In this document: one piece after another, positions 10,938-62,479 of the stretch
How the letters are laid out: the number at the start of each line of letters is the position of its first letter
Numbering within the stretch: the stretch's first letter is position 1
Origin: Branchiostoma floridae
Taxonomy: Eukaryota
Direction of reading: 5' to 3'
Assembly: GCF_015852565.1 (NCBI RefSeq)
Contig: NC_136205.1
Location: forward strand, 3,002,707 to 3,066,706
Length of the DNA: 64,000 bases
Notes under the pieces: generated by a model
Told to the model about the DNA's origin: nothing
The model's input: only the letters and a program-made list of their open reading frames with translations
Database searches by the model: none
Made by a program: the position numbers and the translations under genes

Positions 10938-12882
10938 GTGTGGAGTAACCTCTTCAAGGGTCACCTGCCCCTGTCCAGCCAGCAGGAGATGGTGGTGGGA
11001 GTTCTTCACCAGCTCCACTCCCGCATGCGGAACGTGGACAAACTGAAACAACATCAGCAGGAATCCCTCTCCAAGAAGTCACACGACATCTCGCGGCACC
11101 CCCGCCTGCACAGACTGCTCACGCAGGAGCTCAGTAGACCGGGTTCGTACGCGGACTTGTCGATGTTTGAGAGCGAGACGGTGTCCAGCTCCTGTGGAGA
11201 CATCCCGAATGAGGTCTTCACGAGGGAAGATAGCATGGAGTCAGAGTCGAGCGACAGCCGAAGCGGGGACGCAACTCTTCTTCACAAGCTGCTTGAAACC
11301 AGACCGTCGATGCAAAGCCAGGACACGGAGATCCCGATAACGTCTCTGGCCAGCGGCACAACTACAACCACCACGGTCACGACGCAGTCCGTGTCGAGTA
11401 TCGCCAGCCCTGCGGCCACCATGCCCACTTGGAGTACAGCTCGGTCGGGACAACAAGTTGCTGTCGTACTACCCGAGCAGCGGCATCCGCAAATGGAATG
11501 GCAGACGGACAAAGAACACGGAAAGCCTAGTGGGGAGAAGGCAGGCCCGCATAAGCCTATGCTCATGGGAAAGAACTTGGTTAGCTTATCCGAGGAGCAG
11601 AAAATTTCCGCAGACAGCACGAGCTGCGACAGCATGTCAAGAAATGTACCGAAAATGGGGAAGGCCGAACACGCAATGGGCAAAAGGCCAGGACTGCAAC
11701 CAACACCACTGAACAGACAGAACAGTGACATGTCTGTAGCTTTGAGGCAGCCCAGCTGCTCAAGTGTTAGCCCAACAGGTTCAGTTTCGTCCGCAAAGGG
11801 AATAGAGCCAACAGTTCAGGGCCTAAATCAAGGCGCTACGACGACTCCAGTTGGTGACGAGGAATTGACAGATGCTGCATTAGAGACCCCATTGCTTAGA
11901 CAGCTGCTAAGTACGGACAAACGTGGCGAGAACGACGCCGGGATGACCCCCGAAGAGAGGGAACGACAACGGAAGGAAGTGCTTCTTGAGAAGATGCTGC
12001 AAGACGATGACTCGCCAAAGACCGGTGGCACCCCCCACGTTACTGGTCAGCAGGCTACCGTCAGGATGGCGGACAGCACAAGCACAAACGGAGACCTAGA
12101 GAAGAAAGAGAAACAGGAGCAAGTCAATAAGATCTTGCAGAACCTCCTTGCTGCTACCGGCAGTGCCCCGCTAGACACCATGCCAAGCAATGTAGCCGAT
12201 TGGGACGACGAAGCTCTTCTGGATCTGATCAAGCAAGAGGGAGACAGCCTGCTGAGCAATATACAAGGCGTTGGGGTTGGTGGGAAAGGCATGACGGACG
12301 TGACGTCTAGTCAGGACACCATGCAGTTCCACACGGCAGGCGGAAACGTTGGACACGTGTCGATCATGCCTTCGTCCTTCCCTCCGGCAGCTTTACCGAT
12401 CACTGCCACCGCGGGGACGAACTTGAACATCGGCATACTCGGCTCCAACGCTTCCCAAAGACTCAATTCTGATCCGTCAAGCCAAGTTTCAAAAGGCCTT
12501 GACAACGTGGGAGTTCCGCCGAGTTTGAGCGCTGGAAGCCTACAGAACAGCGAGCAAGTCATCGCTGAGTTAGAAAACCTTCTTGGTCTCCAAGGAAACA
12601 ACAGTCTTCTCGGGACGCAGCAAGGTCCAGGAGTGAGCCGTTTTAACCAAATGGGCAGTTCTGTCATGGGTTGGTCCGACCCCCCACAGGGTGGTGATCT
12701 CGTCGCCCAGCTAGAAAGTGTTCTAAAGAGCGACAGTTCCATTCTATGTGAAATTGACCAGCTGCTCGGGATTGCGCCCTCCGCCGGCGGTGTTCCGATG
12801 ACCCCAGGGGCGGAGGGTGGGGATTTCTCCATGCTAGATGGGGGACTGGATGGTTCGCAGTCCTTTCCTCCAATGGGGCCAG
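10938..12882 (+). CDS. NCOA: NCOA homolog large exon 9 (nuclear-receptor interaction domain with three LXXLL boxes: LLHKLLE, LLRQLLS, ILQNLLA)
   Basis: The 1945 nt open frame starts right after acceptor tctatAG. The donor is GTAATA at 12883. It is S/T-rich with three NR boxes, as in SRC-1/2/3. Confidence 0.85.
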
Positions 12883-13249
12883 GTAATAATAATAGTGTTT
12901 TATTGCAAATTCATGCCTATGAGGCTAAATCAAATGCTAATGTACTAACTATGAAATTAAAAGTGATTGTACATGCATGTATGTGGGCTAATAACAAGTG
13001 AATAATCTAAATTGTAACATGGCAGTTGAAAATGAAACATCTTATATTTTCTATGATATAGGTTGATGTGATGATCTCCGTAAGAAGAGCATTTTAAAGT
13101 TTGTGTTTTTCTAGCAATGAAAAGCATGGTGTGATTTCGGATGCTTTTCAAATAGTCATTTTCCTTCAGCATGGAATCTGGGACATTCACAAATGAAATG
13201 TGTTTCCACTGCTTTCTTGTGCACTGCTTACCAATTCTCCCATGAACAG

Positions 13250-45583: not shown

Positions 45584-46422
45584 TCACATATATACCAGTT
45601 GGCGTGGAAAGATGGTCACAGTACGGAGCTGTACGTTCGCCACCACCAACTGTCCGTCCGGCCCCATGGCAACACCAGCTGGGTTGGTAATGTTCGCGAG
45701 GGTGCGGACAAAATCCCCACGGCTTGTATACATGTCAACCGCCTCTGGTTGCAATTTCGTCACAATGATGCGACCCAAAGTGTCCAAGCAAATACCTCGT
45801 GGAATACCCGACCGTCCTTCTAGTCCAAGTGTCCTGAATGTGACTAGCCTTGCCCCGTAGCGGTTGTAGACCTGGATTTTATTCGCGGTCGATACCAAGA
45901 TGTTTCCCTCGCTGTCTGTGGTTACATATGACACGGGGAACTTTCGTCTCTCCTCAAATTTCAGATGAAGCGAGCCGTTCGACTGGTAGATCAGAACTCC
46001 ACGCATGCTGGTCACGATGACTTTGTGGTCAGTCACGCCAACTGCAATGCCAGGATTCACGGACACGAAGTTGACGTCAAACGTGAACAGAGGCTGCCCA
46101 TTGCGTCTGTACTGCACCACATGTGCTTTAACATTAATATTCTTCCTCTTCCCCACTACCCACAAATGCCCCTCTCCGTCCACGGCGACATCGCTTGGTT
46201 GCATTTTCTTCACCGCGACCCCAGGGACGATTGTTCGGAAGAAGCGGCGATAGGCTCCGCTTATGTTGTAGACATGGACCCTTCTCTTCTGGAAATCAGT
46301 CACGAAGATCTCGTTGTCAGCAGAGACAGCCACTCCACGGTGACTTCGAATTTGGTTTAGTGAGCCTCCTCCCGTCCCAACCGGGACAACCATCAGTGTT
46401 CGGTCATTAATGTCATGGGAAC
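45584..46422 (-). CDS. NPxY/NHL gene copy A, NHL-repeat beta-propeller exon (six NHL repeats, ...FVTDFQKRRVHVYN...GHLWVVGKR...VIVTSM...GNILVST...RIIVT...GQLVVAN...). Terminal exon.
   Basis: Acceptor tttcactgcAG at 46424-23 (phase 1). 269+ aa are open to the stop. NHL signatures match the TRIM-NHL/teneurin-type propeller. Confidence 0.8.
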
Positions 46423-47995
46423 CTGCAGTGAAAGGAAGAGGATGCGATCAATGATAACCTGGCCCTGGTACGAACGTTCGAACAAAGCCTGTTACAGTTA
46501 GCAAAACTAAGAAAATTTTTTCATTCGGGCAACCAGCACGACCGGATGATGATGAAAGAAATCTTAGTAATTCCCAGGAAAGAAATAATGGCTTTTTTAT
46601 GTAAACTATGCAAGTTAGGTCCGCATTTGCATATCCTGTGTCTGTTTATGTTTATGTTTATCTGCCAGAACTTACACATGTTGCATGTATAAAAGTCCTT
46701 TAGTGGGGAAAATAATAGATGGGATAATTTCCTAAATGATTATCCAAATTTATTTTTGTGTACCTCTCCCTAAGCTACTTACGTGCCAAATATTATGGAA
46801 ATTTGTTCAATTATCTCTGCATTTGCATATACTGTGTTAAACCTGCCAGAAATTACACGTTACATGTATCTAAGTCCTTCACTATGGAAAATAATAGATG
46901 AGAGGATGTCCTGATTAATCATTCAAATTTATTTGTCAGCATCTCTTCATCAGCTACCTGGGTTCCTTTGTCACCTTTTGTTCAAGTATCTCCTTGGAAA
47001 GAATAAAAACGCCCCAGCGGTTCCAGAGCAAGCTCCAGAGGTGCCCGAACCTACACTTCTTATTATATATTGACAAAAACTATCTTCCACTAAAAATCAA
47101 GACCAAAGCATGTCCAAGACAAAAGATTACCATGTGACGTGCTTGAGATTGACGACAGCGTTGGCGTTGTTATCCCAAAGGGACCACTGGCAGTCGTGAC
47201 CTAGTAAGAGAATACGAATGGTCTAATAAACGTGTGATCTAGTCAGTGTGTTTGTTTGTTTGTTTGTCTTTCTGTGCGTTCGAAGTTTTGCCGATATTCT
47301 AGCAGCATGAAAGGGGGCATGGAAGAGTTGCAGCATGGAAGGGGGAAGTGGTGTAATAGGATACTTGCAGAATTGAAAATATGGATAGGCTGCAAAACCA
47401 TGTAGCACATTACATTGTTTTGTTTGTTAAGAGACCAGATTCTGGTCTTCAGTAGCTTCAGATAGATCGTTTCCGTTAAGGGTATGAAAAAGTGATCTGT
47501 AGAAATATGAAATACGTGATCTATAACCAATAGGAAGCGTGACAAGCATTCTCTCCCACCGTTAAGTCCTCAGGGGCCTCTGACGTCATTGTCGTCCTGC
47601 CAGAAGGACAACAGATGGGGCGATCCGGGGTATGGATCGGTCTTGATTTCTGCTGTCGATGGGAGACATTGTCATAAAGTCATTGAGTCACACACTAAAG
47701 TGGTCATCTCATGAGACTGCGCCAAATTGCGCGAGGAAATTACGTAAAATGTAAAAAAAAAATCCTTTGTGGTTATACGAACGTGCGACGCAATTTCGTA
47801 TGAAGCCCATATAAGAAGATTATTGAAAAGATATTATTAAATGTATAAACTGCCCTGTTTCACGCCGCTTGCGCCTATTTTGCGAACATTTAGCAAAGGA
47901 AACTATCAGATGAAAGAGTTGGAAGAATACCAGCTGCAGGCTAGAAGTAAGAAGAGAAAGCCAAAAACAGACGGTACACGAGATCGAGAGGGTAC

Positions 47996-48120
47996 CATTG
48001 GAGCATTCGGCGTGCTGTTGTTGATGAATGCAAACTTTAAACTTCCACCGATGACCAATGACAACAGGGTAACAGCTGTACATGCGAAGACAGCAACGTA
48101 CTCCCACCGCAATTTCAAAA
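47996..48120 (-). CDS. NPxY/NHL gene copy A, candidate TM exon (VLKLRWEYVAVFACTAVTLLSLVIGGSLKFAFINNSTPNAPM)
   Basis: Acceptor cctttacAG and donor ATG|GTACCC. Phase 1-in, but phase 0-out, which does not match the NHL exon (needs 1). Usage is uncertain and possibly isoform-specific. Confidence 0.45.
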
Positions 48121-48516: not shown

Positions 48517-49732
48517 CACCAACGTTCTGTTGGGGACCGTTTTTCACGTGCATTGGTGCCTGATTTGCCTGAACGGTGCCATGTGTGATGGAGCTGCATC
48601 TTTCTGACCTGGTGGAGGTATCGTCATCCCCACCTGTGTATGCGACTGCGTAAGGTTCAATGTGGACATCGTCAGGGCTGACATCTTGCGTTCGTTCGTT
48701 CTTGGTCACGTTTCTTCTAGCTTCCATGTCTTCATCGTTCTCATACCTAACCGCATATGGTTCGATGTCGGCATTGCCAGGGATACTGCTTTGTATTTGT
48801 CCTCTCCCTATCGCATTATTACGTCTGGTAACGATGCCATCATTGTCATCATCTGTCTGGTATCTAACAGCATACGGAATGATGTTAAAACTCTCACCAG
48901 TGTCTGTTTGCCAGGAGGCAGATTTACCCGCTTCGGTGTCCCGACTTGCTTGTGGCTCAATGTCTGTATCCGCTTTGGGGTTCAGATCTTCCGCCGTTGT
49001 TTCGACAGTTCCTGATGATGTTGCAGTTCCTGATGTTATGAGGGTTGTATCCGACTCTGATGCAGGTAATGAAGGGTCAGGGGCGTACATGGGATTATGG
49101 TCGCATGATTTTGGCTGGTACCCCGAGGTGCAGTTTAGTGCGTTTTGCCCGTACATCGGATTGGGGGTTTCAGTGTCTGCGACATTTTGCGCGTACATCT
49201 GATTCCGGGCTTGGTCATTCTGGACGCATGCCGTAAGTGGATAGAGTACATTAGAGCGATGTAGAGTATTAACCGTGTTTCCGTCATTTCTAACAAGATC
49301 GATCTTAGCATCATTCTTAGTTGCATCGCATCCTTCAATGTTTGTTAAGGTGTTATCGGTGTTGTTCTGTTCAACGTAAGATTCCGTTGTTTCACTCTCT
49401 TCTGAAACTGTCTTGAAACACACCATGTGATCCTGACAAATGTAAGTAACTTTATGTGGTACAATATGGGCATCACCATGGTTACAATCGACAGTCGGGG
49501 CGATTTCATCAATAGCATCACCCTCTGTGGGGCTGCTCTCACCATCAATGTAGTCGTCGTCGCCATCTTTTTTACATCTGAGATCATATGGCCTGGTGAA
49601 GAGATCGCCATCATTGTCAGCCTGGCTGTAAGCAAGGTCAGTAGTTGTAGAATTCAGACCTGCTGGAGTCGTCTCGTCTTGCTGTAAATCTCCCGTGTTG
49701 TCACCCACTGAGACGTTGTCATCCTGTTGCAT
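48517..49732 (-). CDS. NPxY/NHL gene copy A, exon 1: acidic S/T/D-rich N-terminal region. It has 3x N(P/Q)MY motifs and 3x (I/E)PYAV(R/A)Y repeats.
   Basis: ATG at 49732 (ttatgcaacagG context). The 416-aa ORF is open to the donor G|GTAAGA at 48516-15 (phase 1). No signal peptide. Confidence 0.7.
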
Positions 49733-50339
49733 AAAGTCAACGATGTTGTAAAAAATGCCTTAACGCGCTACTCCCTTACAGAAAGCAAGTCACAAGCGAT
49801 CACAAATGAACCTTTATATGGATTAACGAATTTCAATGCCTTCTTGGTAATAATGTTCTGATGGGTATAAAGAACATTACTATCTATTTCTGATTTCGAA
49901 ATTGTAGGGATTCTTTTGGTTAGATTCCTGCCATACATATTTGCGACAATAATGGTCATTCTAAAGTTTCACAAAACCCTTTAAAATTCCTTCAACAATA
50001 AATGCTATTATATTTTGAAATTCTAATTCGTTCTTACAGCTTTTCTATTCCGTAACATCGCCATAGCCTATAGAATGTGGCCTTTTTGCAAATTTGCGCT
50101 ATTCCTCTCAGACATATACAGTATACGCATATTACATTGTCTATGAAAAATGTTAACATTCTTTTCAGCCAAACATTACAAGATCTATCAGCATAAAACT
50201 TAGTCACAATGAAAACAGTCAGACAATTAGGATTCTCTTTAGATCTTTCATGCAACCAATTAAAGAAAAAAAAAATTAACTATTTTTTCTCTTCCAGTAC
50301 AATCATTCCTCGTCCAATTTTTTCACGAAAAAATCAATT

Positions 50340-50476: not shown

Positions 50477-50994
50477 TTATTTATGACTGAATTCTAGAAA
50501 CACACGGCGCATTGGTCAGTACAGACAATTTCAGTAATCACAGGCGTTTGGCCTACGTGTGGTCTTAGATTGCCTCCGTTTTAATTCGTTTCTTTTCTTT
50601 TATTTGTTATTCTTATATGAATAATTTAAAGAGAGACATATTAGTCTGACCATTCTAATTCTTAACAATCTGTATAATATCTGAAAAAAAAATAACCATA
50701 GACAATCTGATATAATGAAATTATACTGTAATATGTCTGTGCAGAATTGCGCACACTAACAACTAGGTCACACGTTGCCTGCTATGGTGATGCTTCTGAA
50801 TACAATAGGTGTTAGAACCTGGGATGAATGATTCTGCTTGCATATAATGTCATCCTGTATTATATGGACTCATAAAAGTCAAGGGTAACAGTGGTAGATA
50901 CATATAAGGGATTATAAAGCTATTGTACACGGCTAGACCTAACAAAGTTTCTCCAAACTAGTTTGAACAAGAGTTCGGAGACCTCACACCTCCA

Positions 50995-51335
50995 TGAAAT
51001 ATTCTGATTATGCAAATAACTTTCACATTTGCATAATTCATGCTTGCTTATGTACACCTTTCACTAATTTACACAGGTCACAGTGTTGACAGCCCAATCA
51101 TTTACTACACGTACTAAGAAGAATTAGGATACCTTCAGTTAGGATAATTAATTATGCAAATTAGTGACTTATTTGCATAATTAGTATCTGCTTAACTTCG
51201 GCCTGCCACGAACTACATATGTAACATGTATTTGAGTCCTATATTGGAAAACACTGTAAATATAGATTTTCCTCATTAAGTATGCAAATTAAGTTCAAAT
51301 TTGCATAATTGCACTTCATTATGTACATCTCTGCC
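50995..51335. repeat. Three tandem ~110-130 bp repeats. Each carries an inverted pair of octamer motifs (TATGCAAAT[T/A]A...ATTTGCATAATT).
   Basis: Units at about 51010-51060, 51148-51190 and 51272-51320. ATGCAAAT is the canonical POU/Oct-binding octamer. Located in the unique spacer between the divergent paralogs. Confidence 0.6.
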
Positions 51336-51689
51336 ACAGGTACCTGCATACCAAATAGCATGGAAATCCATTATTCCTATGTTCCATTATGCTCCTTGGA
51401 AGATTTCAACAAAAATGCTCCTGCAGTTCCAGAGCAAGCCGCTAGGGGGCTCAAACATACACCACTTCTTCCTTACATCAAAAGCTATCTGCCACCAAGA
51501 AATCAAGACCATAGCATGTCCGGTTAAAAAGATACAAAAAATGGAAGTTCTGCTGCAGTACCAAGGTCACACACCAGGAGGCCCAAAATTGACCTTGACC
51601 TTCGTCTTCCCCACCCCTACCCACATACAAAATATCATCGTAGTCCATCAAGAGGTTCTCAAGTTATGATGTCCACAAATATCTGGAAA

Positions 51690-51755
51690 CAAAAACACAC
51701 AGTGTCACACACAGACACACAGACAGGCACACAGACAGACACACTCAAAACTATA
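51690..51755. repeat. (CACAGA/CA)n microsatellite
   Basis: cacacagacacacagacaggcacacagacagacacac. Confidence 0.9.
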
Positions 51756-52889
51756 CCTCCATTTTTTCATGGAGGTAACTATTATGTACTGAATTGAAAA
51801 TTTTTATGTTGGTACTTTCTCAGCTAAAAGGCGTCACTTAAAACCATCTCTTTGCTTATTCACGCATGACTTCAGGTATTCTACCTGATATTTTTGATAT
51901 TAGTTATTACTTTGGCTGAATAAAAACACACAGCCGGGGTATCCTTCTAGCCGAATTCTACTAAGGACTAACTGAGCAGCATGTACAAATTGAAAATAGT
52001 ATTCATCATTTACACAACCTTCCTTTAAATGTTCAGTACACGTTTCGACGGCCATCTTTCGCCTTCATCAGTACAAGATTTGGTACTGAAAGAGCTATGT
52101 TTGGGGTACCCGAAACGAGGAACAACACGACGTGAAGTTCCTCAAAACACGTCATTCCACACGAAACGTGCCATTTCTCAAACGCCGCTATCTTTGCACG
52201 GGTGCGGAGTTACTGTCGCGTGACGGTAACTGCACGCGTGTAAAGATAGCGTCGCTTGAAGAATAGCACGTTTCGTGCCGATTGACGAGTTTTGAGCAAC
52301 TTCACGCAAACTCCGAACGCGTGCATTACCTCGCCCCGTGCTGACTTCGCACGCTTGCTATTCCTCATATCACGGTCCCCCTATATACCTGGAAAAAGGC
52401 GACAGATGGTCGTCGAAATGTTTACTGAAGATGTAAAGACAGGTTGTGTAAAGGAAGAGGACTTTGTTCAATTGATCTACCAACCTGATGAAACTAAATT
52501 TTTATTTACGGAAGCATATACAGATGGTTACAATGCACATGTAAAGGTGTACACACGTCACAATGCTTAGATTTTATAACCTAGTTGAAGGAACTAATGT
52601 AAGATGGTAGGAAATAGTGTTGGATTTAGCAAAGATGTCAGAATGAAAAGAGTAAAACAAATCAGACGTTTGTACTCACAGTGGACGAAATTGGTGCATG
52701 CTCAGGCTCCATGTTGAGTTTTGATCGGCTTCAGTTCCTCACATCATTGCTCAAGTAGTCATGTAAGATGAACAAAGAAAATGTTGGTAAAAATAAAACT
52801 AAGTAGAGCTGGACTAGCCGCACATGGCAATATCCATTGACGATGAATAGGTCATCCGACAGGATGAAAAGAATAGAGAAGAAGAATAG

Positions 52890-53130
52890 TACGCCAAAAA
52901 GCAGTTACTCAAGCAACTGGATTTGTTTGAAACAATATCCGTTGTTTTTCGCCAGTGACACTGGAGGAAAAACCCTCTTTAACAAGATTTCTCCAGTGTC
53001 GCTGAAGAAAAACAACGGATGTTGTTTAAAACGTCTGACCGTTTCGAAAATCATATCCAGTTGCCCGAGCAACTGCTTTTTGGCGTATCTTATTACCTGG
53101 ATGTCTAACCTTCATCGACATTAGAAGACT
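52890..53130. mobile_element. Complete MITE of a family with TIR AATGTCGATGAAGGTTAGACATCCAGGTAATAAGATACGCCAAAAAGCAGTTGCTCGGGCAACTGGATATG
   Basis: Terminal inverted repeats at 52895-52960 and 53045-53125. Partial copies of the family occur at ~7300-7400, 8150-8260, 29375-29470, 32200-32320, 36330-36410 and 37230-37350. Confidence 0.7.
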
Positions 53131-53835: not shown

Positions 53836-56631
53836 CCGTGTATGTGGCACTGTTAATATAAGTTACCAAAACTTGAATGCAGTGCCACATCGTCCCAGTC
53901 TGTACAAAAAGCAAAATACAAAAAAAAAAACAAAAAAAAACAAGACAAAGAGACAGACGTACCAACTGAGAATACATCCGATAACAACCGTAACCGTCGC
54001 TCCAGGAATGTGATGTAAGACCCAGACCCTTCTGAAACTGACGCAGACGTATTTTGTACTGATTCAAATCCTATCAAGGAGAATCCTATTAAAACAATGG
54101 GACGTACCATTTTTTCAAGGGGGTGTTGCACAGAACTTTTTACATTGCGTATTCATTAATGACATTTGCATAAGTAAACAATAACAATAAATGAGGGAAG
54201 ACGCCCACATGGATTATGCGAAGTTTTCCTCTTTTGAATCAGCTTACCAAAATACTGTATATATATGTGGTATAAAACAACCAATCAAGAAACAACACAG
54301 ATATATGGTCAGGTCTTACATAAGTCAGCCAGCAACACCCCCTTGAAAAAATGGTACATCTCATGTTTTCAATTGGACTCCCTCGATACGACTTTACCCA
54401 GAACAGAAATACGTCTGCGTCAGTTTCAGAAGGCGTCTCGGTCCAACATCACACCATCCCTGGAGCAACCGTTGATACCTCCGTGAATTTGGATGTATTT
54501 TAGTCAGTTGGTGTGTCTGTCTCTTTATATTTTGCATCCACAGTTGTGTGTATGTTGCAAAACGGAAGAAGTATAAGTCAGAAGTGGTGAAAAAGGATAC
54601 TTAGAGAATTGGATGTATTGCACGGCTGATTTACAATCGTCCTCTTAGTTGAAAGCCATGGAAGAGCGTGCGTAAAAGTGAAACATGTCTATGCTGGATC
54701 ATGGAATGGATATGGAAGCATCACAGTTTATTTGATATTCTTCTTCTTTCTTCCTTTTATCCTGTCGGATCTTATCCTCCATAGAAGGCTCCCTGTGGCC
54801 TTTTTTTTGTTGCTCATAATACACTTTTGCTGACCATTTCGTTTTGTACTGGGTCGCTGATTGCCGGTCGTAGCTGAAATCCGGCAATCAGCTTCCCAGT
54901 ACAAAAAGAAATGGCCAGCAAAATTGTATTATGAGCCAAAAAAGGCCCCAGAGAGCCTTCTATGGAGGCTAGTTGGATCTGTTCATCATCAATGGACATT
55001 GCCATGTGCGGCTAGTCTGGCTCTACTTATTTTCTATTATTTTACCAACATTTTCTTTGTTTGCCCTAAATGAATACTGGAGCAATATATAACATTGATG
55101 TAGTCAGTAAGGATGTGAGGGACCAAAATCAAGATGGATCCTAAGGATGCACCATTTCCGTCCACTGTGAGTACAAACCGTGTTTTGACTCTTTTCATTC
55201 TGACATCTTTGCTAGAGCCATCACTATTTCCTTATCATCTGATTATCAAGTATTCTGCCTTTACATGTGTCTTGTAATTATTTGAATATTGTATGCTATT
55301 CAGTCACTAGGGCTAGCTCTTTGTAGCATGATTCGCACGGAATAATCCTGACTGTATTGGCATTTTGTTTATTTAGCTAAACTAATAAATCAAATAACAA
55401 ATAGTTGAACGCATGAAGTCATATGCAAATTATGCAAATGCATTTTAAGTAACGCCCAGTGCTCTATACAATTTACCAAAGAAAAAGTTTGGATCATTTT
55501 TTTTTCAATCAGATGAGAAAGTACTAAGCTCATACAATTTCAATTTCAGTTCACGGCATACGGCATAATAGTTCAAACAAGTCTTGAGAAATTTTGTTCA
55601 GGACAGGATGGCCCGAATAATTGGTCAGGATGGCCCGAAATTAGGCCATTATTTTGTTGGGAAAAATCCTATCTGTGGAAATGCTTAAACGCACTAAAAT
55701 TCTAAAAAGAATCGAATTACGAGCGTATCATTTATACAGCGTTCTAACACCTATCGTATTTTGAAGCAACACCATAGCAGGCAACATGTGACCTAGTTGT
55801 AAGTGTGCGCAGTTCTGCACAGACATATTACATCATGTTAGATTGTCTATGAGTATTTTTTTAGAAAAAAAAACATATTAAAAGATCAATCGTTACATAG
55901 ATTGGTCAAAATTAGAATAGTCAGACTAATATGGCTGTCTTTGAATTATTCATACAAGAACAATAAATAAAAAAATAAATTAATAAGGAGGCAATCTAGG
56001 ACCATAAATAGGCCAAATGCCTTTGATTACGGAAATTGTCTGTACGGACCAATGCCCCATGTGTTTCTAGAATTCATTCATATATATTCTAAAATGTAAT
56101 TCCGTTTTGTGGAATTGTTTTTTCTTCTTCTGAAAATTGGAAAAGGAATTATTGTAATGGAAAAGAACTAAATAATCTAATCTGGGTTTCTTTTACTTTG
56201 TTGTATGAATAATTAAAAAAGAATCATTTTTGTCTGGCTGTTTTAATTTTGACTAATTTGTATACAGATTGACAATGTAATCTTTTTGTCTAAATATTCA
56301 TAGACAATGTAATATGATAATACTGTAATTTGTCTATCCAGAATTGCGTAAAGTTGAGAATATGCCACATTTCATCGGCTATGGTGATTTTATGGAATAG
56401 AATAGCTGTTAGAACGAATTAGAAAATATAAATATAGAATACAACACGGTGTATTCCGTATCACCCGAGGTACCAGCCAGACCGCGGGTCGGATCGCACG
56501 ACGGCCGAGAAAACCACTGTTTTGATGCGAAATGCGCCAGAAGTTGAACAAATTTGTTGCCCTCGAAAAAAAAGCGTTGCAAGAGTAATGTTCCAACGTC
56601 CGAATCAGGTATTCGAACTGTCGATGGTATG

Positions 56632-57642
56632 TCACTATGATTCGTCCATTACTTGAATATGCTGACATTGTTTGGTGTGGCCTTCTCGGCAAAGATTGTG
56701 ATCTTCTTGAGTCTGTCCAGATGGCCGCGGCACGAGTTTGTACCGGAGCCATGAGAGGCACTAAACATGAGAGCTTGTTAGCCGAGGTTGCATGGGACAC
56801 ACTAGCGGACAGAAGGAAAAAGCACCAGTTGATTCAGTTTTGGAAAATTATGAATGGTCTCGCACCACTGTACTTACATAATATTATCCCTCCACGTATC
56901 TGTGATACGGTCCCTTACAACCTTCGCGCAAACCAAAACCTTACTTCCATTGCCTGTAAAACTGAAAAGTATAAAAGATCCTTCCTACCTTCAACTGTTC
57001 ACTTGTGGAATGAACTGCCTACGAATGCTAAAGCCGTCCTTTCGATCAACACTTTCAAAAAAGAGCTGGACTCACTATTCAACAAGCCGACAAAATACTC
57101 CCATTTCTCTTATGGCCAAGGTCGTTCCGCAGTTCATCTTACAAGGCTCCGTCTAAACTTCAGTCAGTTAAACTACCATCTATTTCAACACCATTGTATT
57201 GATTATCCTACATGTAAATGCGGCTATCATTGTGAAACAACCGAACATTATCTACTACACTGCACACTCTATACTAGCCAAAGAAGTTCTTTGTTATCGG
57301 CTGTCTCAAATATTATAGTAGACCTAAAGCACCTCAACGACACTACTTTATGTACTTTACTGTTATCAGGATCAACATCTCTCTCACATCAACAGAACTG
57401 TAACATTTTTGATCTTGTCATTACCTATATCCATTGTACAGGCAGGTTCTCCTAATTGATTCAGCACCAACTTGTCTTGTTTAAATTTATTTTTCTGTTA
57501 TCCATTTTGTACTTATGTATGTAATGTCGTTTACTATTCTTGTTTTATGCGTATGTTTCTTGAGTAGAAGGCTTAATATAAGCAATTTGTGCTTTCCGCC
57601 TCATACTCGCAAAATATATGTGAATAAAATAAAATAAATAAA
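56632..57642 (+). mobile_element. 5'-truncated non-LTR retrotransposon (LINE). It keeps the ORF2 C-terminal tail with a CCHC motif and an (AAATAA)n 3' end, flanked by ~18 bp target-site duplications.
   Basis: ORF 56637-57455 translates to the conserved LINE ORF2 tail (LLEYADIVWCG...ESVQMAAARVCTGAMRGT...LADRRKKHQLIQFWKIMNG...CKCGYHCETTEHYLLHC). The TSDs are AACTGTCGATGGTATGTC at 56613-56630 and AACTGTCGATGGTACGTC at 57643-57660. Confidence 0.8.
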
Positions 57643-58313
57643 CTGTCGATGGTACGTCCACTCGAAACAGTTCGATTTATTCGAATGGAGCCCGTGTGAT
57701 AAGCCCGGGCCGTACGGAAAGTTATCACCCGGTCCGGAACACCCGTATCGAACGTTTTTGCGTCACAGGTATGACATAATAGTATTTATTGCTGAAAAAA
57801 GTCGAACAATATCTCCCACCCTATTTAGTTAATGGTTGTCTTAAGAACTATTGTTCTCGCAAACAGTTTGTTAGGCCTAAGCTTATAAGAAAAAAGGGTG
57901 ACATTACCGACCATGCCAGTAAAACCTGCCAACCCTAACCTTTTGGAGGGATAAAACACTGTAAAAGGACATAAAAAAACTTCCGTCACCTTATTTCTGC
58001 TGCAATAGACAAGTGTGTTTGAATTGATGTATGTCTAAAATGTGATGTTGATAATGGCAGTGCTCTCGTGCATTCCAGTTTTACATTATCAAAATTTCTC
58101 ATAGGATCACTTGGACAGAAATCTAAACAAAGCCCTACAATTTCAAAAACAGAAATACATAGTTATGCCCTTTATACCTGTCACAACATTTTCGCTAAGA
58201 AGGCATCAACATCTGTTGATTCATATAAAGGATGTTCATTTGTGACGATAATTGACATCGTAAGAGTTTTGCTTTCTGTAAGGAAGTAGCGTGTAAATTA
58301 TTTTACAACATCG

Positions 58314-59565
58314 TTGACGTTATACAACCAGGATGACCACATCTCACTAGAGGAAAACACAGGCGATCTACAGCAAGACGAGACGACTCCAGCAGGTCTG
58401 AATTCTGGAAATACTGAACCTGCTTCCAGCCAGGCTGACAATGATGGCGATCTCTTCACCAGGCCATATGATCTCAGATGTACCGAAGATGGCAAAGACG
58501 ACTACATTGATGATGAGAGCAGTCCCACAGAAGGTGATGCTGCGGATGAAATCGCACCGACTGTCGATTGTAACCATGGTGATGCCCATATTGTGCCATA
58601 CAAAGTTACTGACACGTGCCAGGATCACATGGTGTGCTTGAAGACAGTTTCAGAAGAGAGTGAAATAACGGAATCTTGCGTTGAACATAACAACACTGAT
58701 AACACCTTCACAAACATGGATGAATGTGACCCAACTAAGAGTGATGCTAAGATCGATACTGTCGTAAATAACGGAACCACGGTTAATACTCCACACTGCT
58801 CTAATGTACTCTATCCACTAACGACATGCGTCACGAATGTCCAAGCCCGGAATCAGATGTACACGCAAAATGCCGCAAACTCTGAAAACCCCAATCCGAT
58901 GTACGCGCAAAACGCCATAAACTGTGCCTCGGTGTACAAGCCAAAAGCCTGCGACCCTAATCCGATGTACGCCCCTGACCTTCCATTACATGCAACAGAG
59001 TCGGATACAACCCTCATAACATCAGGAACTGCAACATCATCAGGAACTGTCGAAACAACCGCGGAAGATCTTAACCCCAAAGCGGATACAGACATTGAGG
59101 CACAAGCAAGTCGGGATACCGAAGCTGGTAAATCTGCCTCCTGGCAAACAGACACTGGTGAGTGTTTCAACATCACGCCGTATGCTGTTAGATACCAGAC
59201 AGATGATGACAATGATGGCATCGTTACCAGAAGTAATAATGAGACAAGTAGAGGACAAACACAAAGCAGTATCCCTGGCAATGTCGACATCGAACCATAT
59301 GCGGTTAGGTATGAGAACGATGAAGACCTTGCAGCTAGAAGAAACGCAGCCAAGAACGAACGAACGCAAGATGTCAGCCCTGACGATGTCCACATTGAAC
59401 CGTACGCAGTCGCATACACGGGCGGGGATGACGATACCTCCACCAGGTCAGAAAGATGCAGCTCCACCACACATGGCACCGTTCTGGGGGGCAACAGTGA
59501 TGCGCGTGGCGTTAGAGATCAGGCACCGATGCATGTGCAAAACGGCCCCCAACAAAACTTTGGAG
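58314..59565 (+). CDS. NPxY/NHL gene copy B, exon 1 (acidic N-terminal region with NPMY x2, NQMY and PYAV(R/A)Y x3). The initiator ATG seen in copy A is mutated here (ATG to ATA plus a 1-nt indel).
   Basis: The ORF is open over 58314-59565 to donor G|GTAAGA, but it has no in-frame ATG until residue ~100. It is about 87% identical to copy A. Confidence 0.55.
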
Positions 59566-59812: not shown

Positions 59813-59937
59813 GGTTGCAAGTTCGATGGAAGTACGTCGCTGTCCTCATATGCACAGCTGCTGCCCTGTTGTCATTGGTCATTGGAGGAAGTTTAAGTTT
59901 CGCATTCATCAACAACAACACGCCGAATTCTCCTATG
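59813..59937 (+). CDS. NPxY/NHL gene copy B, candidate TM exon (LQVRWKYVAVLICTAAALLSLVIGGSLSFAFINNNTPNSPM)
   Basis: Acceptor gcttttacAG and donor ATG|GTACGC. Same phase problem as copy A. Confidence 0.45.
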
Positions 59938-61628
59938 GTACGCTTTCGTATACCGTTTTTTTTTTTGCTTTGTCTTCTTATCTTTAGCCTGGTATTCTTC
60001 CTCTTCTGGCGCACCTTCTTTCCGCTGATAGTTTCCTTTGTTAAATTTTCTTAAGAAGCGACGAGCGTTATCTCACTGGACTGCGCCAGATTGCACAAAG
60101 CTTTCACAAAAATTGTGCAAACCGACCCAAATTGGCACTGATCCGTGTAATGTGTAGTCTGAAATCGTGATTTTGTTAGACATTGCATTTACAAAATAGG
60201 CGCAAAGCAGCGCGAAACAGTGTAGTTTATACATTTAATGATATATAGATCTGCAAGTTCCAATAACCTGCTTATACGGGCTTCATATGCAATTGCGTCG
60301 CACATCAGCGAAACCACAAGAGAAAATTGGCATGTCGACCTCGCGCATGTTGGCATAGTCTTGTGAGATAACCACTTTAGTAATGACTTAAGTATGTGCC
60401 ATAGTCTTGTGAGATAACCACTTTAGTATGTGGCTCATCAAATTCATGACAATGTCTTCCATCGAGAGCAGAAATCAAGACCAATCCATACCTCGGATCG
60501 TCCCATCTGTTGTACTTCTGGCCATGGGTGGACGACAAAACCTGAGCTGACGTCAATAGCCCCTGAGGACTTTAAGGTAAGAAGAATGCTTAACAAGCTT
60601 CTTTACTTTTCAGCCATACTTCCAGTTTCCGATAGGTAGATGAAAGCACATATTTCATACTGTAAGCGTTTTGTCATGTGAAGTTAAGCAAACAAAATAA
60701 TGTAAGGTGCTACGCACTCATACAAAGATGTTGCAGCCATCAAGACATTGAATTGTCAGAAAGCTGTTTCAAATTCCTTGGAACTTCTGCATCACTTAAT
60801 CTTTTATTTGTTTTAGCAAACCGATAAGATGTCGAAGGATTATGACATTACCTTCTGATTTATCTATCTTATTTACTTATAATATTTGTTACATAAAAAA
60901 ACTTAACTCAAAGTGGTACCAAAGTCTACATACTGCAACATTGGACAAGAGTCTAACCATATTTTCAATTCTCTAAGTATCTGTTTACATCACTTCATGC
61001 TGTCACTTGGGAATATCAGCACGACTTCGAACGCACAGAAACTGATTAGAATATCATTGTTTTCACGCGTTAATGAGTTCATTCGTATTCTCTAACTAGA
61101 GCACGACTGCCAGTGATCCTTTTGGGGCAACAACGCCAACACTCTCGCCAATCTCAAGTACATCACACGGTAATAGTTTGTCTTGGACATGCTATGGTTT
61201 TGAATTTTGGTCAAGATAGCCTTTCATGGTTAGAAAAAGGAGAATAGACTTGTGCACCTTCTGAGTTTGCTCTGTAACCGAATATGATTCAAATTTAAAG
61301 GAGATGATATTCAGCATGCAGGCAGCTAATATAAGGAAAAGATGAACACAATAAAATACAAATCACGTAGATTAGGACTTAGTTGGATAATTGAATAGGA
61401 AATTAACTACCCCTCTTGTTTTTCCTAAAAAAAGACTTTAATATATTTAACGTATGTAATTTCTGAGAGGTTTAACAGTAGGCAGACACACGATATGCAA
61501 CTGCGGACTTAACTTGTATAATTCCTACAAAAATGACCTACTTTTAAAATTTTCTTTACGCAATTGTGACAGGCCTTTTTGTACCAGACCAAGTTATCAT
61601 TGATCGAATCCTCTTCCTTTTACTGTAG

Positions 61629-62479
61629 TTTCTCATGACAATAATGACAACTCAGAAAAGGTTGTCGTCGTCGGAAAGGAAGGAAGCACAATAATTGAAG
61701 GTCGAAGTCACCGTGGAGTGGCTGTCTCTGCTGACAACGAGATCTTCGTGACTGATTTCCAGAAGAGAAGGGTCCATGTCTACAACATAAGCGGAGCCTA
61801 TCGCCGCTTCTTCCGAACAGTCGTCCCTGGGGTCGCGGTGAGGAAAATGCAACCAAGCGATGTCGCCCTGGACGGAGAGGGGCATTTGTGGGTAGTGGGG
61901 AAGAGGAAGAATATTAATAAGAAAGCACATGTGGTGCAGTACAGACGCAATGGGCAGCCTCTGTTCACGTTTGACGTCAACTTCGTGTCCGTGAATCCTG
62001 GCATTGCATTTGACGCGACTGACCACAAAGTCATCGTGACCAGTATGAGTGGAGTTCTGATCTACCAGTCGAACGGCTCGCTGCATCTGAGATTTGAGGA
62101 GAGACGAAAGTTCCCAGTGTCATACGTAACCACAGACAGCGAGGGAAACATCTTTGTCTCGACCCCGGGTGAAATCCAGGTCTATAATCGCTATGGGGCA
62201 AGGCTATTCACATTCAGGGCACGTGGACTACAAAAAAGATGGTCGGGTGTTTCCCGGGGAATTTGCTTGGACACTTTGGGCCGCATCATTGTGACGAAAT
62301 TGCAACCAGAGGCGGTTGACATGTATACAAGCCGTGGGGGTTTTGTCCGCACCATCGCGAACATTACCAACCCAGCTGGTGTTGCCATGGGGCCGGACGG
62401 ACAGTTGGTGGTGGCGAACGTACAGCTCCGTACTGTGACCATCTTTCCACGCCAACTGGTATATCTGTCAGACAACTAA
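61629..62479 (+). CDS. NPxY/NHL gene copy B, NHL-repeat beta-propeller terminal exon
   Basis: Acceptor ttttactgtAG at 61627-28 (phase 1). Open to TAA at 62477-79. About 93% aa identity to copy A. Confidence 0.8.

Follow-up and report, generated by a model that had tools for sequence, protein, structure and literature searches.

An amphioxus gene that has lost its start codon: a possibly maintained paralogue with a remodelled 5' end in an inverted gene pair

Introduction

TRIM-NHL proteins (TRIM2, TRIM3, TRIM71 and Drosophila Wech) carry a C-terminal NHL-repeat beta-propeller, and names of this group have been given automatically to relatives of the two genes described here, which we call copy A and copy B. 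Both lie in a window of 64,000 nucleotides of the amphioxus Branchiostoma floridae (contig NC_136205.1, positions 3,002,707 to 3,066,706 of the forward strand; the window is this whole stretch, and positions below are counted from its first letter). True TRIM-NHL relatives (e.g., P0046 and P0052) bear PF00097 and PF00643, whereas the first exons of copies A and B have no RING, B-box or coiled-coil match, and the copies have a disordered acidic tail and a transmembrane helix instead. The predicted product is not a TRIM protein, since it has no RING or B-box. Teneurins are type II membrane proteins of ~2500-2800 residues with a cytoplasmic N-terminal tail bearing tyrosine and proline motifs, and with an extracellular region that contains an NHL propeller along with EGF repeats, a YD shell and a Tox-GHH domain. 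The predicted A/B product would be like them in layout alone; the EGF repeats, YD shell and Tox-GHH domain are not present here. Literature searches returned nothing on a family that joins an acidic tail, a transmembrane helix and an NHL propeller, and no published name for one.

The other described class to which this locus invites comparison is that of duplicated unprocessed pseudogenes disabled by start loss. Like them, copy B keeps its introns, adjoins its parent gene and has a mutated initiator; it differs in having no frameshift, stop or splice lesion in 2280 nt despite a non-coding divergence of ~0.3, and in an amino-acid rate that is not raised. Of the signs by which pseudogenes are recognized, copy B thus shows the loss of the initiation codon of its functional parent, while frameshifts, stops and broken splice sites are missing from its gene body. 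We put at about even the proposition that copy B is a maintained, still working paralogue with a remodelled 5' end, and this is the reading around which the evidence is arranged below.

Start codon loss in copy B

Copies A and B are the arms of a large inverted segmental duplication (~42-50.8 kb against 55.7-64 kb), and their first exons match over 1159 nt at 90% identity; because of this arrangement and this match, their resemblance is not due to chance. That the duplication might be a mis-assembly of two haplotypes was considered and rejected, as the non-coding divergence of ~0.3 is far above allelic values and both types occur in an independent gene set. Read directly, the minus strand of copy A runs ...TTTTTTACAACATCGTTGACTTT ATG CAA CAG GAT GAC AAC GTC..., with the ATG at 49732-49730, and the plus strand of copy B runs ...ATTTTACAACATCGTTGACGTT ATA CAA CCA GGA TGA.... 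The bases 5' of these triplets, with the conserved frame restored, are ...GTTGACTTT ATG CAA CAG GAT GAC AAC... in copy A (minus strand) and ...GTTGACGTT ATA CAA CCAG GAT GAC CAC... in copy B (plus strand).

An earlier, sequence-only reading of this stretch had stated that copy B has lost the initiator ATG and gained a 1-nt indel, and both direct reading and a MAFFT alignment of the two copies bear this out. The triplet ATA at 58322-58324 (plus strand) replaces the initiator ATG of copy A, and a 1-nt insertion gives CC at 58328-58329, where copy A and the Branchiostoma lanceolatum relative have a single C. The extra C moves the old ATG frame of copy B into a TGA at 58334-58336, again as had been read. 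The conserved frame of copy B begins at GAT 58332 and is closed upstream by an in-frame TAG at 58287-58289, 15 codons before. The 14 codons in between are ATG-free and include two near-cognate codons, TTG 58314 (where the listed open reading frame [ORF] of copy B begins) and ACG 58317. Counting from GAT, this frame reaches its first ATG at codon 100 (58629-58631), which agrees with the claim of a long ORF that continues for about 100 codons without any ATG; the ORF from this codon is long and has a G at +4. Between 58333 and 58629 there are 12 out-of-frame ATGs, several of them in good context. The one at 58333 opens a 5-codon upstream ORF (58333-58350, ATG ACC ACA TCT CAC TAG, with A at -3) and is the first AUG downstream of the lost start, so it would be the first on any promoter-proximal transcript. 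The ATG of copy A itself stands in a weak context, with T at -3 and C at +4.

The extra C is derived in copy B, because the same 12-mer, CAACAGGATGAC, is found in copy A and in P0013, the B. lanceolatum relative; the reverse polarity, with the frame of copy B ancestral and a deletion in copy A, was rejected on the same evidence. At the ATG/ATA triplet the B. lanceolatum outgroup is gapped, and we infer that ATG is ancestral and ATA derived from two A-type sequences (copy A and the gene model P0011) together with the need of the ancestor for a start codon. A sequencing error at this site is unlikely because there are two independent lesions within ~8-9 nt, CC is no long homopolymer, and P0001, a B-type gene model that was sequenced independently, also lacks the N-terminal MQQ.

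The sequence-only reading had further pointed to a possible splice acceptor, caaccAG/GAT (the slash marks the splice junction here and below), through which copy B could be entered from an upstream exon. The candidate site is there, with its AG at 58330-58331 rather than 58329-58330, and P0001 is collinear with the window from 58332 onward. Its pyrimidine tract is weak, and a branch-point-like TTGAC motif lies ~15 nt upstream.

Gene structure and integrity of the two copies

Each copy is a four-exon gene encoding an acidic tail, a transmembrane segment, a stalk and an NHL propeller. The ORF of ~420 codons that had been taken for the whole gene is exon 1 only, and its last 14 codons read through a G/GTAAGA donor in phase 1. 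In copy B (plus strand), exon 1 (58332-59565, donor GAG/GTAAGA, phase 1) encodes the acidic, probably cytoplasmic tail, exon 2 (59813-59937) the transmembrane segment (...YVAVLICTAAALLSLVIGGSLSFAFI...), exon 3 (61100-61169) the Ser/Thr-rich stalk, and exon 4 (61629-62479, including the stop codon) the NHL-repeat beta-propeller (Pfam NHL, E = 2.7e-10). In copy A (minus strand), the corresponding exons are at 48517-49732, starting with the ATG, 47996-48120, 47131-47200 and 45584-46422 (Pfam NHL, E = 1.1e-11). Exons 2 and 3 of both copies were placed with tblastn, using the paralogue P0012, and from their splice sites, which are canonical and of compatible phases. The full models comprise 749 amino acids (aa) for copy A and 759 codons from GAT for copy B. 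The match to Pfam PF01436 (NHL) scored 44.6 bits for exon 4 of copy A and 40.2 bits for that of copy B (cut-off 20), while the exon-1 products (416 and 430 aa) had no Pfam family at E <= 0.01. The tail contains NPxY motifs and three PYAV(R/A)Y motifs. The transmembrane exon is 125 nt long in both copies and homologous to ...AIALMALIIGGSLIWAFFI... of P0012; its hydrophobicity was judged by eye. The encoded protein is predicted to be a type II membrane protein: its tyrosine-motif tail would lie in the cytoplasm, a single transmembrane helix and a short stalk would follow, and the NHL propeller would be outside the cell. The stop codon of copy A comes three codons before that of copy B (TGA at 45584-45586 against TCA; the end of copy B is at 62468-62479), so that the products end in ...LVYM and ...LVYLSDN, respectively. 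The early end is, as far as the gene models indicate, a type-specific feature of copy A and no damage, since P0011 ends likewise.

The body of copy B is a coding sequence (CDS) of 2280 nt and 759 codons with no stops and no frameshifts, and its three canonical donors and three canonical acceptors are intact. Across the whole CDS the two copies differ by coding indels of only 27 nt and 3 nt. The non-coding parts have diverged much further: the three introns have a divergence (K) of 0.31-0.39, with 38 indel events in 1470 aligned nt (~1 per 39 nt), and the 242 nt upstream of GAT have K = 0.29 with 6 indels, against K = 0.08-0.11 in the two large exons and an intermediate value, about 0.20, in the two small ones. 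From these rates, and with 3.5% of the possible substitutions in the CDS of copy B creating a stop, roughly 9-18 frameshifts and 6-14 stops would be expected by our own arithmetic had copy B been neutral since the duplication, and none was observed.

The pairwise ratio of non-synonymous to synonymous divergence (dN/dS) between the copies was 0.60 overall, with 0.44 for codons 1-104 and 0.68 for the NHL exon, and there was a significant excess of synonymous changes (P = 0.0016). When changes were polarized with B. lanceolatum DNA, each copy had 32 non-synonymous changes, along with 24 synonymous ones in copy A and 13 in copy B. Singleton amino-acid changes among four taxa numbered 21 in copy B and 27 in copy A of the window, 29 in P0001 and 45 in P0011, with stem changes of 12 against 11. 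Evolution of copy B at twice the rate of copy A was rejected (P = 9e-4, and 6e-9 for the pair totals); the protein of copy B has changed at no higher rate than that of copy A. The suggestion of decay soon after duplication is not supported by these figures, in which non-coding divergence of 0.29-0.39 and 38 intron indels stand against an intact frame, intact splice sites and no excess of amino-acid changes in copy B.

A-type and B-type lineages

The window has a low density of ORFs, and every protein match came from Branchiostoma, which marks it as amphioxus DNA. The closest are two B. floridae gene models, P0011 (A-type, 780 aa) and P0001 (B-type, 693 aa), both carried in UniRef under the name [quoted passage not shown] Like copy A, to which it is 84.9% identical, P0011 starts with MQQDDNVSV and ends in ...LVYM; it differs in having extra PYAVRY repeats. 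P0001 is 88.5% identical to copy B and shares with it the DDHISLE... start of the conserved part, a 9-residue LGGNSDARG insert and the ...SDN end; 11.5% of the residues differ between them, and both frames are open. The B-specific residues in copy B include DDHISLEENTGDL, and DDHISLEENTGDLQQDETTPAGLNSGNTEPASSQADNDGDLFTR is a B-specific peptide. The grouping of copy A with P0011 and of copy B with P0001 is supported by 38 sites, as opposed to 7 and 5 sites for the alternative groupings; therefore, the A/B split is older than the split of this genome from the one behind P0001 and P0011.

P0001 has no MQQ. It starts with 13 unrelated residues, MDYQTGYTITSST, after which its residues 14-411 correspond to 58332-59564 of the window, with the join exactly at CAG/GAT. 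Compared as protein models, both P0001 and P0011 omit the transmembrane and stalk exons that are intact in the window. The omission preserves the frame, phase 1 to phase 1, and the two models represent either a soluble isoform or a mis-annotation.

Five further Branchiostoma paralogues bear a transmembrane segment, namely P0012 from B. floridae, P0003, P0006 and P0009 (RefSeq, hybrid assemblies) and P0013 from B. lanceolatum, which is named "TRIM3." Like copies A and B, they combine a hydrophobic segment and an NHL propeller with an acidic tail at the N-terminus, in which NPxY and repeated (I/V)EPYAVRY motifs occur, and this common layout supports the four-exon model of both copies; they differ in being only 25-44% identical and in start positions that vary among members. 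An alignment showed the NPxY and PYAV(R/A)Y motifs conserved in both copies of the window, P0001, P0011, P0002, P0012 and P0013. P0002 and P0012 begin ~30 residues further in, and the RefSeq model P0004 ~270 residues in. P0013 (locus L001) is the nearest relative for which DNA was at hand. It reads ATG AAC CAA CAT TTA TTG ATG TTA CAA CAG GAT GAC, and its N-terminus, MNQHLLMLQQDDD, is contiguous with exon 1 in genomic DNA; the QQDD protein sequence is kept between B. lanceolatum and copy A.

Translation of copy B and rival explanations

If copy B is a maintained paralogue, it would represent the B type in a long-standing inverted gene pair, and in the B-type lineage a G-to-A change together with a 1-nt insertion would have removed the initiator ATG that the A type still uses. 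The stretch around the lost start would then have drifted as non-coding DNA, while selection would have maintained the frame from GAT 58332 onward and all of the splice sites. Ribosomes would come into exon 1 at 58332 or before it, and the likeliest route would be an ATG-bearing upstream exon spliced to CAG/GAT, as in P0001. The lesions, the gene structure, the intact frame, the equal amino-acid rates and the separate B-type lineage are observed; selection since the loss of the start, and the actual site of initiation, are what we infer. Because two lesions fall within ~9 nt, as opposed to none in the 2280-nt CDS, and P0001 likewise lacks MQQ, the evidence suggests that the loss is old, with a start region that has long been non-coding while the body stayed under selection. 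Alternatively, this haplotype may have acquired both lesions only very recently.

Several observations weigh against copy B being maintained in this way. The upstream spliced exon proposed by the sequence-only reading gains from the exact join of P0001 at CAG/GAT, yet no ATG-bearing upstream exon was identified in the window. The P0001 peptide MDYQTGYTITSST was not found in the whole window on either strand, and its best upstream match has no Met; a scan for phase-0 exons of the form ATG...GT upstream of copy B gave 14 candidates, none of them supported. The best candidate conserved between the copies, MVILWNRIA/GTTAGA at 56381, has a poor donor in copy B. The pyrimidine tract of CAG/GAT is weak compared with those of the three real acceptors of the gene, and P0001 is a product of gene prediction, in which a first exon may have been made up so that the model had an ATG. 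A ~1.7-kb LINE-like (long interspersed nuclear element) insertion, seen in copy B only, lies ~220 nt upstream of the lost start. The B lineage taken alone, with its 32 non-synonymous and 13 synonymous changes, shows no significant departure from neutrality (P = 0.21). Gene conversion from copy A, biased toward long exons, could have helped to keep the frame open. Finally, no RefSeq-derived protein more than 50% identical to either copy turned up in the protein searches, which were not exhaustive; a word-seeded search with exon 1 of copy A had missed P0011 (~85% identical), which a later search found, so that the lack of a match is weak evidence for a gene being unannotated. Among other sources of an N-terminus, a B-specific GTAAGA donor at 58260, which would give a 72-nt intron up to CAG/GAT, was set aside, as the 79-codon open frame leading to it is ATG-free, and a contiguously encoded P0001 N-terminus (YTITSST against YFTTSLT in copy B) was rejected because the resemblance is too slight, and the sequence too simple, to be relied on.

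Most of these same observations feed the main rival explanation, which we hold to be possible, if tentative, namely that copy B has very recently become a pseudogene or null allele in which loss of the start was the first and only lesion and the frame is intact owing to the short time or to conversion from copy A. The ancestral ATG is gone, the TAG at 58287-58289 closes the frame and the next in-frame ATG comes only at codon 100; the scans of the window found no compensating exon, the LINE-like insertion is specific to copy B, its lineage is not different from neutral, and neither copy was among the RefSeq-derived proteins in the searches made. At 0.14, the synonymous divergence (dS) of the large exons falls short of half the intron K; this is compatible with exon-biased conversion, and suggests either such conversion or intron distances inflated by poor alignment. 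Conversion does not seem to be the full explanation, since residues specific to the B type persist over the whole gene (7 + 14 + 17 sites) and copy B has thus not been overwritten. A recent loss also fits poorly with two lesions clustered within ~9 nt when the CDS has none and all splice sites are intact, with the B-type model of an independent B. floridae assembly that likewise has no MQQ start, with both B-type frames being open despite an 11.5% residue difference, and with amino-acid changes that are no faster in copy B than in copy A.

The remaining explanations differ in where translation would begin. In one, copy B has been functional for long without a 5' AUG, using a near-cognate start (ACG 58317 or UUG 58314) or an exon supplied by the LINE-like element, which we consider improbable. 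If true, an AUG-less copy B would be a natural case of start-codon turnover by non-AUG initiation or transposon exonization in a chordate receptor-like family. Taken without the element, initiation at UUG 58314 or ACG 58317 is more doubtful still. Both codons belong to the open frame that follows the TAG at 58287, and ACG 58317 stands opposite the second ATG of the B. lanceolatum relative (TTG ACG TTA against TTG ATG TTA in an alignment anchored on TTG), but both are in poor context, with T at -3, copy A has ACT at that place, which makes the ACG probably mere drift, and the N-terminus of P0001 gives no clear support. Non-AUG initiation of a main ORF is rare in animals, which counts against such a start. 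Translation from the first in-frame AUG at 58629, giving a tail without its first 99 residues, had also been offered by the sequence-only reading and is unlikely, though marginally less so than the near-cognate start by itself. The ORF from there is long, its G at +4 is favorable, and N-termini do differ across the family (P0002, P0012 and P0004); against this, a scanning ribosome would seldom arrive past the 12 out-of-frame AUGs, and codons 1-99 are open and conserved like the rest of exon 1 in both copy B and P0001, with a dN/dS of 0.44 in that stretch, none of which would be expected for a 5' untranslated region. Least probable of all, in our judgment, is that the ATG of copy A is no real start either and that a shared upstream coding exon is spliced to CAG/GAT in both copies, so that the ATG-to-ATA change would be intronic and without effect. 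In its favor, the AG comes after both the indel and the ATG-to-ATA change, the two copies agree in having phase 0 at GAT, copy A has its ATG in poor context, and one short ATG...GT ORF is conserved upstream of both (A 50064, B 56381). Yet the A-type model P0011 begins at that very ATG, the N-terminus of P0013 runs uninterrupted into the exon in genomic DNA, the QQDD protein sequence is conserved between B. lanceolatum and copy A, and the pyrimidine tract is weak in both copies.

Upstream flanks and other features of the window

The LINE-like insertion upstream of copy B was delimited by the break in A/B homology at 56434-58105 (plus strand, boundaries approximate). Within it, a 272-aa ORF at 56637-57455 (plus strand) resembles the C-terminal part of a LINE ORF2, and an antisense 136-aa ORF overlaps its 5' part. 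The 272-aa ORF had no Pfam match, and the LINE assignment was made by eye.

Four family members, from at least two species, have an element of ~70-220 nt, with the core ATTGGTC.AAAT...TAGTCAGACTAATATG, upstream of them in the same orientation. Upstream of copy B it is found at 55740-55971, with an inverted copy at 56198-56416, and upstream of copy A at 50594-50818 and 50029-50279; at the other loci it is found at 9469-9546 of L001 and, as three tandem copies, at 9241-9697 of L002. Between the window and B. lanceolatum the element is 84% identical, more than the coding exons are (64-74%). The element may serve the family as a regulatory module of its own, may be a 5' exon, or may be a repeat of the MITE (miniature inverted-repeat transposable element) kind.

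The 5' flank and start of the B. lanceolatum gene (L001, 9940-10034) align collinearly with a part of copy B that precedes its own start region by ~100 nt (none of 500 shuffles reached the score), and the segments 58138-58234 and 58296-58335 of copy B resemble each other (7 of 500 shuffles reach the score). From these alignments it seems that the A/B ancestor duplicated ~100 nt of its own 5' end, which would fit repeated turnover of the start site in the family.

In the spacer between the copies, a palindromic hairpin at 54825-54923 gave sub-threshold matches to mir-2574 on both strands (43.5 and 41.8 bits, gathering score 90), and a weaker mir-1467-like match was seen at 52935-53022 (minus strand). 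A repeat at 51261-51778, presumably a transposable element, overlaps a 122-aa ORF at 51301-51669. It occurs once in the window and, at 71-79% identity, many times in the Branchiostoma belcheri locus L004 and once in the B. floridae locus L002. The longest ORF in the window, of 687 aa (10938-13001, plus strand), had a sub-threshold Pfam match to Nuc_rec_co-act and no homologue at E <= 0.001 among 8000 candidates.

Significance

An annotation based on ORFs or homology would either class copy B among the pseudogenes or make up an N-terminus for it, which seems to have happened with P0001, and the published A-type and B-type models, by omitting two real exons, render a membrane protein soluble. 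Should copy B prove to be expressed, the lack of a start codon would not by itself be a good guide to pseudogenes in genomes as highly polymorphic as those of amphioxus. In a lineage-specific gene family that evolves fast, a loss like the one seen here is nothing unusual, and the pair is a small but clear case of 5' ends turning over among young, fast-evolving duplicates whose gene body stays under selection. The gene family itself, with its tyrosine-motif tail, transmembrane helix and NHL ectodomain, is apparently restricted to Branchiostoma and may outweigh the start-codon lesion in interest.

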